From: Candidatus Omnitrophota bacterium
GTDB taxonomy: Bacteria; Omnitrophota; Gorgyraeia; Gygaellales; Profunditerraquicolaceae
Assembly (NCBI GenBank): GCA_030650425.1
Contig: JAUSED010000003.1
Coordinates: 135,903 to 199,902, forward strand
Direction: 5' to 3'
DNA: 64,000 nucleotides
Numbering within the stretch: position 1 is the first letter of the stretch; each line of letters begins with the position of its first letter. The position numbers and the translations under genes were made by a program. Shown in pieces: positions 28,428 to 31,406 of this stretch. The notes under the pieces are model-generated. The model had not been told where the DNA came from. It was given only the letters and a program-made list of their open reading frames with translations, and made no database searches.

Positions 28428-31406
28428 ATGCTTTACAAAATTGAGGTTAGAGATAGGCCCGGTATTTTTGACGCTATTGGGAATAGCGTCAAAAGCGATA
28501 TGCTTGACTTTGGGATCAAAACGGTCAGAGATGTCCGTTTTATACAAGTCTATATCATTGAAGGTGATTTAATCGAAAAAGATATAGAAAGAATTTGCCT
28601 CAACCTGCTCGTTGATCCAATCTGTCAAAGTTATTTCGTTAATCCAGCCTTGCCTAAAACCAAAAAAGATGAATTTATAGTCGAAGTCGCCTATAATCCG
28701 GGAGTGATGGATCCGGTAGAAGGTTCAACCTTAAAAGGGATTAGCGATTTAGGTATAGAAGGCGCTCAGTCGGTTAAGACGGCCAAGAAATATATCATCA
28801 AAGGCAATCTCACTGTGTCACAGCTCAAGATTATCTGTGAAAAAATTCTTTATAATAAATTAATCCAGCACGTCGTAAACTTGGGGACAGTCCCCTCCCC
28901 TTCGGGGACAAGTTTCGGGGACAGTCCCCAAGTTTCTGGCGCCAGAAAAATAGAAACGGTCCCATTTTTCTTGGTTACCGTAGATTTATTAAATGCTTCT
29001 GAGAAAAAGCTGCTTGAACTGAGCAAAAAAGGCCAGTTATTTCTGAATCTGGCGGAGATGCGCGCGATAAAAAATTATTTTAAAGGATTAAAGAGAAATC
29101 CTACTGATTGTGAGCTGGAGACTATTGCCCAAACCTGGTCTGAGCATTGCTACCATAAGACATTCAGAGGAAAGATAAGATATACTGAAGAAATCCGAAA
29201 AGGGACCGTTTCTATTTTTCCCGAGCCTAGTACCAGAAAAATAGAAACGGTCCCATTCTTTAAAACAAAAATAATTGATGGACTTCTCAAATCCACCATC
29301 ATGAAAGTCACTAAGGAATTAAATAAGCCTTGGTGCGTATCGGTATTTAAGGATAACGCCGGGATCATCCGTTTTGATGATCTATACAATATTTGTTTTA
29401 AGGTAGAGACCCATAATCACCCTTCGGCGCTTGAGCCATTTGGAGGGGCGAATACCGGGATAGGCGGAGTCATCCGCGATCCGATGGGGACCGGACTCGG
29501 CGCAAAACCTTTTCTGAACACCGATGTATTTTGTTTTGGACTGCCGGATTATCCGTTTAGCAAGCTGCCTGTCGGCGCGCTTCATCCCAAGCGGATTATG
29601 AAAGGGGTGGTCAGCGGCGTGCAGGATTACGGGAATAAAATGGGGATTCCCACGGTAAACGGCGCCATACTTTTTCATGAGAAATTTACCGGCAATCCTT
29701 TAGTCTATTGCGGCACAGCCGGGATTATGCCCCGCGATAAATCCTTCAAAAAAACAAATGTTGGAGATTTAGTGGTGGTTCTCGGCGGCAGAACCGGCAG
29801 AGACGGAATTCACGGCGCGACTTTTTCATCGGGCGAGCTGACCCATGAATCCGAAACAATTTCCAGCGGCGCAGTGCAGATTGGTAACCCGATTCAAGAA
29901 AAAAAGATGCTCGATACAATTCTACAGGCGCGCGATAAAAACCTGTACAGCGCGATTACTGATTGCGGGGCAGGCGGGTTATCCAGCGCCGTAGGCGAAA
30001 TGGGCGCGGAAATGGGCGTGCGGGTAGATTTGGATAAAGTTCCGCTAAAATACAACGGCTTATCTTATATGGAAGTTTGGATATCCGAATCGCAGGAGAG
30101 AATGGTTATTTCCGTTCCTAAGGAAAAAATTGATCAGCTGCTTAAAGTCTTTGAGAATGAGAATGTAGAGGCAACCGTAATCGGCGAATTCACGGATACT
30201 GAAAAACTCGAACTCTATTATCAAAACAATCTAGTTTGTGATCTGGACATGCATTTTCTTCATGATGGTATTCCTAAGACAACCAAAGAGGCAGTTTATC
30301 TTCAAACTAAACATAGAGAGCCAAAAATAAATTGCGCTAAAGACCTAACCCCGGTTTTGGAAAAACTGCTTGCGGATTACGATATTTGTTCCAAAGAATG
30401 CGTAATCAGGCGCTATGACCACGAAGTGCAGGGAGGTTCGGCCCTCAAGCCATTAGTAGGCATCAACAATGACGGGCCGTCAGACGCCAGCATCGTGAAG
30501 CCGGTTTTAGGTTCCCCTAAAGGCGTAATTGTTTCCAATGGGATTAATTTCAGGTATGGTTTTATTGATCCCTATTGGATGGCTGCTTCCTGTATTGACG
30601 AAGCGCTCCGTCAAATTATCAGCGTCGGCGGTTCGTTAAAACAAACGGCGATTTTAGATAATTTTTGCTGGGGAAATCCGGATAAACCTGACAGGCTGGG
30701 CGGATTGGTGCGCTGCGCTTATGGCTGCTATGCGGCAGCAAAAAATTTCGGTGTTCCTTTTATCTCCGGCAAAGACAGCCTGTATAATGAATATAACGAG
30801 CATGATAAGTCTATGGCTATTCCCGGCACGCTTTTAATTTCGGCGATCAGCGTGATGGAGGATACGGATCAAGCGGTTTCGATGTATACCAAGGAAGCCG
30901 GGAATTTGATTTATATCTTGGGCGAGACTTTTTGCGAATTAGGCGGCTCGCATTACTATGATTTATTCGGCGCTGTCGGCAATAGTGTTCCCAAAGTGAA
31001 TGTAAAAAAAGCTAAAGCGCTCTTTGATGCTTTAAACAGGGTCTCAGCCAAAGGCCTGGTTCGCTCAATGCATGATTGCTCTGAGGGAGGCTTAGGGGTT
31101 GCCGCGGCAGAGATGGCCTTTTCCGGAGGCTTAGGGATGGATTTATTTTTATCCAGCGTGCTTTATACAGGCGAAAAACGTAATGATTTCATTCTATTCT
31201 CCGAATCAAGTTCCAGATTTATAGCGGAAGTAGAGAAAAATAAACAGCATGAATTCGAAACAGCGCTAAAGGGAATGCCCTTTAGCTTGATTGGCCGCGT
31301 AAATAAAAAGAAGGATTTTAAGGTTTATGGTTTGGATGGGAAAATATGTATCAACGCGGATATTCATAAGTTGAAAGAAACGTGGAGGAGGCCGTTAAAA
31401 TGGTAA
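28428..31406 (+). CDS. purL: FGAM synthase, PurS-PurL fusion, carrying two in-frame repeat-element insertions
   Basis: N-terminal PurS-like domain of about 80 aa, then PurL with motifs such as WSEHCYHKTF and ETHNHPSALEPFGGANTGIGG. The inserted peptides GTVPSPSGTSFGDSPQVSGARKIETVPFF and GTVSIFPEPSTRKIETVPFF are encoded by palindromic repeats. Confidence 0.85.
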   Translation: MLYKIEVRDRPGIFDAIGNSVKSDMLDFGIKTVRDVRFIQVYIIEGDLIEKDIERICLNLLVDPICQSYFVNPALPKTKKDEFIVEVAYNPGVMDPVEGSTLKGISDLGIEGAQSVKTAKKYIIKGNLTVSQLKIICEKILYNKLIQHVVNLGTVPSPSGTSFGDSPQVSGARKIETVPFFLVTVDLLNASEKKLLELSKKGQLFLNLAEMRAIKNYFKGLKRNPTDCELETIAQTWSEHCYHKTFRGKIRYTEEIRKGTVSIFPEPSTRKIETVPFFKTKIIDGLLKSTIMKVTKELNKPWCVSVFKDNAGIIRFDDLYNICFKVETHNHPSALEPFGGANTGIGGVIRDPMGTGLGAKPFLNTDVFCFGLPDYPFSKLPVGALHPKRIMKGVVSGVQDYGNKMGIPTVNGAILFHEKFTGNPLVYCGTAGIMPRDKSFKKTNVGDLVVVLGGRTGRDGIHGATFSSGELTHESETISSGAVQIGNPIQEKKMLDTILQARDKNLYSAITDCGAGGLSSAVGEMGAEMGVRVDLDKVPLKYNGLSYMEVWISESQERMVISVPKEKIDQLLKVFENENVEATVIGEFTDTEKLELYYQNNLVCDLDMHFLHDGIPKTTKEAVYLQTKHREPKINCAKDLTPVLEKLLADYDICSKECVIRRYDHEVQGGSALKPLVGINNDGPSDASIVKPVLGSPKGVIVSNGINFRYGFIDPYWMAASCIDEALRQIISVGGSLKQTAILDNFCWGNPDKPDRLGGLVRCAYGCYAAAKNFGVPFISGKDSLYNEYNEHDKSMAIPGTLLISAISVMEDTDQAVSMYTKEAGNLIYILGETFCELGGSHYYDLFGAVGNSVPKVNVKKAKALFDALNRVSAKGLVRSMHDCSEGGLGVAAAEMAFSGGLGMDLFLSSVLYTGEKRNDFILFSESSSRFIAEVEKNKQHEFETALKGMPFSLIGRVNKKKDFKVYGLDGKICINADIHKLKETWRRPLKW
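28883..28963. repeat. G-rich palindromic element GGGGACAGTCCCC-TCCCCTTC-GGGGACA-AGTTTC-GGGGACAGTCCCC plus a half-site GAAAAATAGAAACGGTCCC, inserted in frame in the purSL linker
   Basis: The reverse complement is nearly identical to 36204-36248. The unit GGGGAC(A/T)GTCCCC recurs at 19390-19416 and 8299-8319. Confidence 0.7.
29202..29254. repeat. Perfect inverted repeat GGGACCGTTTCTATTTTTC-N15-GAAAAATAGAAACGGTCCC, inserted in frame in the PurL N-domain
   Basis: 19-bp perfect arms. The same half-site occurs at 28945-28963. Confidence 0.7.

Follow-up and report, generated by a model that had tools for sequence, protein, structure and literature searches.

The fused purS-purL gene (purSL) on contig JAUSED010000003.1 of a Candidatus Omnitrophota bacterium, which lies within the 64,000-nucleotide stretch analysed here (hereafter the window, with positions counted from its first letter), contains two palindromic blocks that leave its open reading frame (ORF) intact, and the question arises how such blocks came to reside in the coding sequence of an essential enzyme. 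From our point of view, they are probably copies of dispersed, non-coding short hairpin repeats of the type represented by repetitive extragenic palindromes (REPs) and Rickettsia palindromic elements (RPEs), with stems of the form GGGAC...GTCCC, which were copied to new sites and survived in tolerant loops and linkers.

Palindromic blocks within purSL

The host gene encodes an intact formylglycinamidine ribonucleotide (FGAM) synthase of 992 amino acids in which all Pfam domains are present and which is 100% identical to a protein listed as 'PurL' of a Candidatus Omnitrophota metagenome-assembled genome at NCBI, where it is encoded on a contig of 359 kb. Its orthologues, mostly 959-970 amino acids long, are 70-83% identical along their full length. 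A preliminary description of this DNA had claimed that two palindromic elements lie in the gene without breaking its frame, and this was borne out: the ORF stays open across one block in the linker between PurS and PurL and across another further downstream (site 2), neither block shifts the frame or brings in a stop codon, and the peptides quoted at that time are indeed encoded.

The linker block (28877-28966) is a composite palindromic block. Its first part, element A, is enclosed by a longer palindrome (28877-28935), is free of stops in all six frames and contains two exact copies of GGGGACAGTCCCC (28883-28895 and 28917-28929), a sequence for which the window holds 14 matches with up to two mismatches where 0.70 would be expected. 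The other part is the right arm of element B, which pairs imperfectly (75% complementary) with positions 28918-28941; the imperfect hairpin at 28918-28963 is also counted with the GGGAC-type copies of the window. At site 2, element B forms the hairpin that had been reported as a perfect inverted repeat of 19 bp (29202-29254), and both arms were found as described (Table 1); the stem can alternatively be drawn with 22 bp at 95% complementarity. Element B makes up 53 nt of a 60-nt insert (29202-29261) that encodes GTVSIFPEPSTRKIETVPFF (residues 259-278), and three of its own six frames are open. The 19-mer GAAAAATAGAAACGGTCCC has three matches in the window, at 28945 (+), 29202 (-) and 29236 (+), where 0.03 would be expected.

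A dispersed family of hairpins

Copies of these elements were sought in the window and in 4.7 kb of adjoining sequence, by which a contig of the independent Logan assembly of SRR13727527 extends it and in which no further copy was found. Positions 28884-28928 are the reverse complement of 36204-36248 over 45 of 45 bases, and the identity collapses just beyond both edges, so that the earlier claim of a reversed, intergenic recurrence of the first element stands with 45 contiguous identical bases. Within purSL, 28942-28966 and 29233-29257 are identical over 25 nt, and elements A and B share the stem ends GGGAC..GTCCC. The two had been regarded as different elements; there are two blocks, but given the common ends and the 25 identical nucleotides, A and B are by their sequence related sub-families of one hairpin superfamily.

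The window contains 64 inverted repeats with a stem of at least 10, compared with 26.5 in shuffled sequences. Stems starting with GGGAC or GGGGAC lie at 19387-19419, 19771-19794, 19874-19901, 22979-23043, 23060-23112, 23494-23549, 28877-28935, 29202-29254 and 36203-36249; the copies listed in the preliminary description are all real, but the first six of this series had not been included. Recurrence elsewhere in the genome, which it had named as decisive, is thereby confirmed in the window. GGGAC-type copies amount to about 10 per 64 kb, with 7-8 of these inside ORFs, and they occur as stem-loops and as pairs of stem-loops. All copies seen inside genes are in frame and without a stop, and units based on GGGGACWGTCCCC are stop-free in all six frames. 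The predicted RNA folds reach -44 kcal/mol for the linker block (z -4.6 versus shuffles), -29.6 kcal/mol for the site-2 hairpin (z -7.4) and about -30 kcal/mol for the intergenic copy at 36198-36254 (z -2.6); apart from this last copy, all folds tested are far more stable than those of shuffled sequences, with z-scores from -4.6 to -7.6.

Table 1. Host gene and hairpin elements located in the window.
Feature	Position	Strand	Basis or remark
Host gene purS-purL	28428..31406	+	ORF call, translation, database match
Element A, 45-47 nt, GGGGACAGTCCCC-TCCCCTTCGGGGA-CAAGTTTC-GGGGACAGTCCCC	28883..28929		Peptide GTVPSPSGTSFGDSP, PurS-PurL linker
Right arm of element B (CCAGAAAAATAGAAACGGTCCCATT) in linker	28942..28966		Encodes ...RKIETVPF; 25-nt identity
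Element B, perfect 19-bp stem (29202-29220 / 29236-29254), 15-nt loop	29199..29257		Inverted-repeat scan, fold
Hairpin GGGACTGTCCCC-GCA-GGGGACTGTCCC	19387..19419		In frame, peptide KKGLSPQGTVPL; insert relative to family consensus
Hairpin TAGGGACGGTT-tt-AATCGTCCCTA	19771..19794		In frame, peptide DRDGFNRPY; within window-specific insert
Palindrome GGTAGGGGACACTT/AAGTGTCCCCTACC	19874..19901		In frame, peptide GRGHLSVPYP
Hairpin GCAGAAGGGGACACTTTCC...GGAAAATGTCCCCTTCTGC	22979..23043		In frame, peptide AEGDTFRQGSNESLKRKMSPSA
Hairpin GGGGACAGTTTCC...GGAAACTGTCCCC	23060..23112		In frame, peptide GDSFLRISSSGVERKLSP
Intergenic hairpin AAGGGACAGTTTCC, 28-nt loop, GGAAACTGTCCCTT	23494..23549		Inverted-repeat scan, fold
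Intergenic copy of element A, reversed	36203..36249		5 nt past stop codon of SPFH/Band-7 gene

The two purSL sites in orthologues

For comparison, an alignment was made of the first 400 residues of 60 orthologues from databases and of 81 loci taken as DNA. Site 2 sits after the motif WSEHCxHKTF(R/K)G, and the distance from there to IDNLLK is 10 residues in distant PurL proteins, which have a tight turn at this place, 17 in the nearest relatives, which read EKISKTKTKL without the insert of the window, and 36 in the window itself. The linker is flanked by LYNKLIQH and VDLL and varies as much as site 2. Compared with some 200 aligned orthologues, both sites are hypervariable loops and the blocks are insertions relative to the orthologues, that is, lineage-specific segments at loop or linker positions that the orthologues do not share. 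In an AlphaFold model built from 68 orthologues, which is of low quality overall (mean predicted local distance difference test score, pLDDT, of 62), linker residues 142-182 are unstructured (pLDDT about 33) and the site-2 insert, G259-F278, appears as a low-confidence loop with strands 249-256 and 277-284 on either side. The model weakly suggests flexible loop or linker positions for both blocks.

These comparisons also bear on the idea that the segments represent conserved protein sequence of the ordinary kind or an artefact of assembly, for which we found no supporting point and which we consider hardly tenable. Conserved sequence is at odds with the orthologues that do without the segments, and an artefact with the fact that L001-L003 and L005, which were assembled independently from other samples, have family hairpins in these loops too, as well as with the Logan contig, which is 100% identical to the window across 12.3 kb that do not cover purSL.

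At the DNA level, the loci L002-L004 read ...ATCAGTAAAACAAAGACAAAA... at site 2, where the window has 60 additional bases including the hairpin. L002 carries a hairpin with a 29-bp stem, GGGGACGGTTCTATTTTTCT-caagcccagtgtc-AGAAAAATAGAACCGTCCCC, at the linker and not at site 2, and the sequence of this hairpin, loop included, clearly identifies it as element B of the window. The linkers of L003 and L001 hold GGGACGGTTCTGCC...GGCAGAACCGTCCC and GGGACAGTCCCCTTCGGGGACAGTCCC, respectively, site 2 of L005 holds a GGGACTGTCCC-type hairpin, and L004 has no hairpin at either site. Further occupants of these loops are short tandem repeats with units of 6-12 nt (e.g. GCTCCAAGCTCCAAGCTCCAAGCTCCAAGCC), which were found at site 2 of L001 and L011, in the linkers of L005 and L008 and at both sites of L015, and unrelated palindromes, which were found in L022 and L015. 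That tandem repeats and unrelated palindromes occupy the same two loops elsewhere fits a filter that lets insertions persist at permissive sites.

One could also argue from the tandem repeats (L001 site 2, L005, L008, L011, L015) that these loops are prone to local expansion, and that the palindromes were born in place through slippage and template switching in unconstrained loops, with nothing moving at all. We regard such an origin as very unlikely, as neither arm of the site-2 hairpin resembles the empty-site sequence of L002-L004, so that all 60 nt are extra, as identical units of 45 nt and 25 nt stand with sharp edges at non-homologous places, and as the same loop sequences are found in different genomes and different contexts. 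Contradicted by dispersed identical copies, it appears already largely refuted.

A neighbour-joining tree built from 903 ungapped PurSL columns places the window as sister to the database proteins P0002 and P0004, both of which have a short A-type hairpin only, together with the ancestral SSYQFNL. Since these two keep SSYQFNL and carry neither the half-copy of B in the linker nor B at site 2, both of these inserts are gains in the window's own lineage. Over the whole tree, A-type and B-type linker inserts are distributed in a patchy manner that calls for at least three gains each, or for many losses.

A second gene with in-frame hairpins

Five further hairpins of the family, all in frame and open (Table 1), lie in ORF 19157-23398, which encodes 1413 amino acids with a signal-peptide-like start and gave zero matches in a Pfam search. 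The protein is a member of a very large family (860 matches) that is specific to Omnitrophota and whose members have the N-terminal ~400 residues in common at around 60% identity. The C-terminal parts of this family are highly variable and are fused to methyltransferase, metallophosphoesterase, HEAT, radical SAM and other domains.

When the three N-terminal hairpins were aligned to 60 members of the family, most members turned out to be empty at these sites, and some carry other GGGAC-type inserts there, with peptides such as GLSPxGTVP, RGHFPSGLS...KESVPY and AEGDTFRQ...RKVSP. The palindrome at 19874-19901 resembles a shorter version of an insert, RGHFPSGLS..KESVPY, which paralogues have at the same site, and the AEGDTFRQ...RKVSP type of peptide is found at an N-terminal site in P0132 and P0155 and near the C-terminus (22979-23043) in the window. 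Tetrapeptides that derive from the six frames of GGGGACWGTCCCC (GLSP, GTVP, GDSP and similar) number 52 in this large family versus 7.9 in shuffles, and 19 versus 7.3 in PurSL. The hairpin repeats account for odd peptide motifs of Omnitrophota proteins (GTVP, GDSP, GLSP, RGHFP..ESVP) that could mislead annotation, alignment and domain calling. In-frame copies in further proteins were sought with the six-frame translations of six elements as a query, and no match was obtained.

Compensated changes and a possible use of the structure

The intergenic hairpin at 23494-23549 and a hairpin at 749-800 of L011 have the same 28-nt loop with two differences, and the stem around this loop reads TTT/AAA in one copy and CCC/GGG in the other, so that the change is compensated. 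A conserved orthologous spacer was considered as an explanation for this pair, but the gene beside the hairpin is UPF0047 in the window and RadC in L011, and the explanation was rejected on these grounds; the hairpin at 23494-23549 is a dispersed element. Nested hairpins were found at L011 3202-3290 and L022 1516-1589, where GGGACACC... stands within the loop of GGGACGGTTCTA.... Among 13 hairpins that were compared, stem positions 6 and 10-14 vary and the changes are compensated; the stems thus stay paired via compensated changes. In addition, when the window genome and its relatives are compared, the units recur with sharp boundaries at non-homologous places. As a separate observation, a family hairpin stands in both L011 and L022 immediately upstream of an ORF of 226 amino acids, which is RadC in L011.

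REPs of Escherichia coli serve as binding sites for gyrase and IHF. In analogy, the hairpins may be protein binding sites in the DNA, or they may act in the mRNA, either by causing ribosomes to pause at the boundary of the PurS and PurL domains or as determinants of RNase III cleavage or stability. The structure itself would then be useful and kept by selection on pairing, even though the repeats may have arrived by insertion. Stems of 19-29 bp that are perfect or nearly so despite coding constraints speak for such selection, as do compensated differences between copies and genomes (TTT/AAA versus CCC/GGG around the same loop), a block placed exactly at a domain boundary and, among the matches listed in the scan described below, a GGGACWGTCCC core in many phyla. 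Nonetheless, we consider it unlikely that this explains the blocks. The nearest orthologues function without the site-2 hairpin and several of them without the linker hairpin, and the tandem repeats and unrelated palindromes at the same loops elsewhere point to a permissive site and not to a required structure. The copies moreover are found in either orientation and in contexts that are unrelated, the intergenic ones have no terminator-type U tract, and in the single imperfect stem that was checked (22979-23043) the mismatch on the sense strand is C.A and not a G.U pair.

Relation to known palindromic repeats

The known RPEs (RPE-1 to RPE-10, described by Ogata et al. and summed up in PMC10969869 and PMC3733652) form ten families with a length of about 150 bp, many of which lie in frame in metabolic genes. 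Like the elements described here, they are palindromic non-coding repeats that occur between genes as well as inside ORFs, are found in frame in unrelated housekeeping genes and add a short peptide that is thought to be placed at positions compatible with the fold. In-frame insertion into unrelated genes alongside intergenic copies is seen in the window, too, with two sites in purSL, five in ORF 19157-23398 and intergenic copies at 23494 and 36203. RPEs, however, are families specific to Rickettsia, among which RPE-4 and RPE-6 are CGTC-tagged REPs, whereas the present elements belong to an unrelated phylum, have GGGAC..GTCCC ends and lack a CGTC tag. Their units of 24-65 nt also fall short of the RPE length of about 100-150 bp, a distinction drawn by description and not by comparison of consensus sequences. 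The term RPE-like, as used in the preliminary description, is therefore apt as an analogy for in-frame palindromic inserts but does not denote membership in the RPE family.

The same description had called such proliferation rarely documented outside Rickettsia, which is overstated, as intragenic REPs of the GTAG/CGTC super-families have been described in several species, and Di Nocera et al. (2013; PMC3733652) list the highest numbers for Opitutus terrae and R. conorii. They are often dimers, encode 20-30 residues that were proposed to lie in linkers or loops, and are sometimes located within other palindromes (PMC3733652). The present elements resemble them in being short stem-loops inside known genes that are often paired and may be nested in palindromes, and the Omnitrophota host is related to the Planctomycetes-Verrucomicrobia-Chlamydiae (PVC) superphylum, to which O. 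terrae (Verrucomicrobia) belongs. In contrast, REP stems are mostly 6-9 bp long, compared with 12-22 bp here, and REPs are predominantly extragenic and downstream of ORFs, whereas most copies in the window are inside ORFs. The flanks of the window copies have no consistent GTAG/CGTC, and where GTAG occurs, at 19874, 39937 and 55787, it lies within the paired palindrome at both ends.

[quoted passage not shown] They likewise are small non-autonomous repeats able to fuse in frame with host ORFs, but measure 70-300 bp and have terminal inverted repeats and target-site duplications, whereas here the whole unit is a single hairpin of less than 65 nt and the comparison of filled with empty sites revealed no duplication. 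In an Rfam 15 search with the window and the two blocks, the repeats drew only generic, miRNA-type hairpin matches far below the gathering score, and a BLAST search of element A against plasmid and phage collections gave nothing meaningful. The reading of the intergenic copies as intrinsic terminators was rejected, since there is no excess over shuffles and none was predicted at 23494-23549 or 36203-36249 (+ strand). Overall, the behaviour of these repeats is known from Rickettsia and Opitutus, and what is new is the phylum and the type of sequence.

Proposed origin of the purSL inserts

If the blocks are indeed copies of a dispersed repeat, non-autonomous palindromic units would be copied into new places of Omnitrophota genomes and most insertions into genes would be lost. 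To survive inside a gene, a copy would have to preserve the frame by its length, to be free of stops when read in this frame and to fall within a loop or linker, where 10-30 extra residues at the protein surface or between domains would do no harm. The inserts would then be transcribed and translated as part of PurSL. They are most likely translated and not skipped, because all intragenic copies seen are in frame and open, and they are probably near-neutral for the enzyme. Translational bypassing or splicing of the inserts was set aside, since in-frame, stop-free copies would be unnecessary if they were skipped. With regard to mobility, we infer that it would be driven by an enzyme, either on single-stranded DNA in a manner analogous to REPs or by some other route.

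Several points weigh against this account. The ORFs scanned beside the hairpins included no transposase, and no gene for a REP-associated tyrosine transposase (RAYT) was seen in the 64 kb plus 4.7 kb, which is also the extent, short of the whole genome, over which copies were counted. Neither a target-site duplication, in the comparison of filled with empty sites, nor the classical REP tag GTAG/CGTC was found. The perfect stems of 19-29 bp within coding sequence could mean structural selection and not recent insertion, and the recurrence of inserts at exactly two loops could reflect a target preference or local processes over a pure filter by selection. The translation of the inserts, finally, is itself deduced from the open frames.

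As copies of a dispersed repeat, the purSL blocks would extend the concept of 'selfish DNA inside proteins', known from Rickettsia and a few REP-rich species, to the uncultivated phylum Omnitrophota. With filled and empty sites that can be compared in one essential enzyme they represent a clean example, and they mark two loops of PurSL as natural sites tolerant of insertion. They further supply a concrete sequence family with which a mobilising enzyme can be sought.

The core motif in other phyla

A scan of reference-genome contigs with the pattern GGGACNGTYYCN{1,31}GRRACNGTCCC returned at least 119 stretches (L082-L200). Among the matches listed, GGGAC(A/T)GTCCC doublets or GGGACGGTTCC...GGAACCGTCCC hairpins overwhelmingly prevail over the other variants that the pattern allows, and doublets, hairpin ends and tandem arrays are found in many phyla, among them Planctomycetota, Actinomycetota, Firmicutes, Acidobacteriota and Saccharibacteria, with Lachnospiraceae, isolates of Bacillaceae and Kiritimatiellia also represented. 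The listed matches also include a 27-mer in L160 (Aminicenantales) that is identical to positions 19390-19416 of the window and a 27-mer in L198 that is identical to the L001 linker. In low-GC genomes of other phyla, 31 of the 36 GGGACWGTCCC-type doublets among the matches listed lie outside ORFs of at least 200 amino acids.

One could speculate that GGGACWGTCCC is a unit shared across phyla, perhaps recognised by a conserved enzyme or DNA-binding protein, and that the Omnitrophota sub-families are one branch of a widespread, undescribed superfamily. We put this forward as a rather doubtful proposal; if it were true, a core that is stop-free in six frames would be unusually able to colonise protein loops. 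The presence of the core in many phyla may reflect common descent, a shared recognition protein or the convergence of GC-rich palindromes. A full-text literature search for the core strings brought up primers and unrelated matches only. A form that recurs in Planctomycetes among the matches listed is GGGACTGTCCC-(G/A)ATTTTGC...GCAAAAT-GGGACTGTCCC.

Other palindromes and features of the window

Besides the GGGAC-type family, the window contains palindromes of other sequence. Positions 36302-36365 hold a perfect inverted repeat of 19 bp with an unrelated sequence (CTGCCTTGTCTTGTTTCTC / GAGAAACAAGACAAGGCAG, 26-nt loop), downstream of element A's intergenic copy by 50 nt and upstream of an ORF for a YGGT-like membrane protein. 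The spacer between purD and purE holds the perfect palindrome GTAGGGGCACGGCA/TGCCGTGCCCCTAC (39937-39964), which overlaps the start region of purE. A second palindrome family is represented between the genes for chorismate synthase and shikimate kinase by CCTGCCTGCCGGCAGGCAGG (55801-55820), nested within ACGTAGGGGAGGTT...AACCTCCCCTACGT (55787-55836). A near-identical CCTGCCTGCCGGCAGGCAGG palindrome is located in frame at PurSL site 2 of L015, where it encodes the peptide TACLSGRQAN, and peptides of the CRQAG type are present in the linkers of P0042 and P0047. In L022, which is from another Omnitrophota genome, an unrelated palindromic repeat at 6511-6669 (GTGTCATTGCGAG...CTCGCAATGACAC, peptide VSLRARRAKQSNWIASSPTAPRNDT) lies in frame at the PurSL linker.

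With respect to structured RNAs, positions 8269-8349, which overlap the start of ORF 8239-8898, match the c-di-GMP-I-GGC riboswitch (RF03167) with 61 bits, barely over the gathering score, and positions 17834-18028 match a group I intron (Rfam RF00028) with 76 bits and an E value of 1.7e-17.

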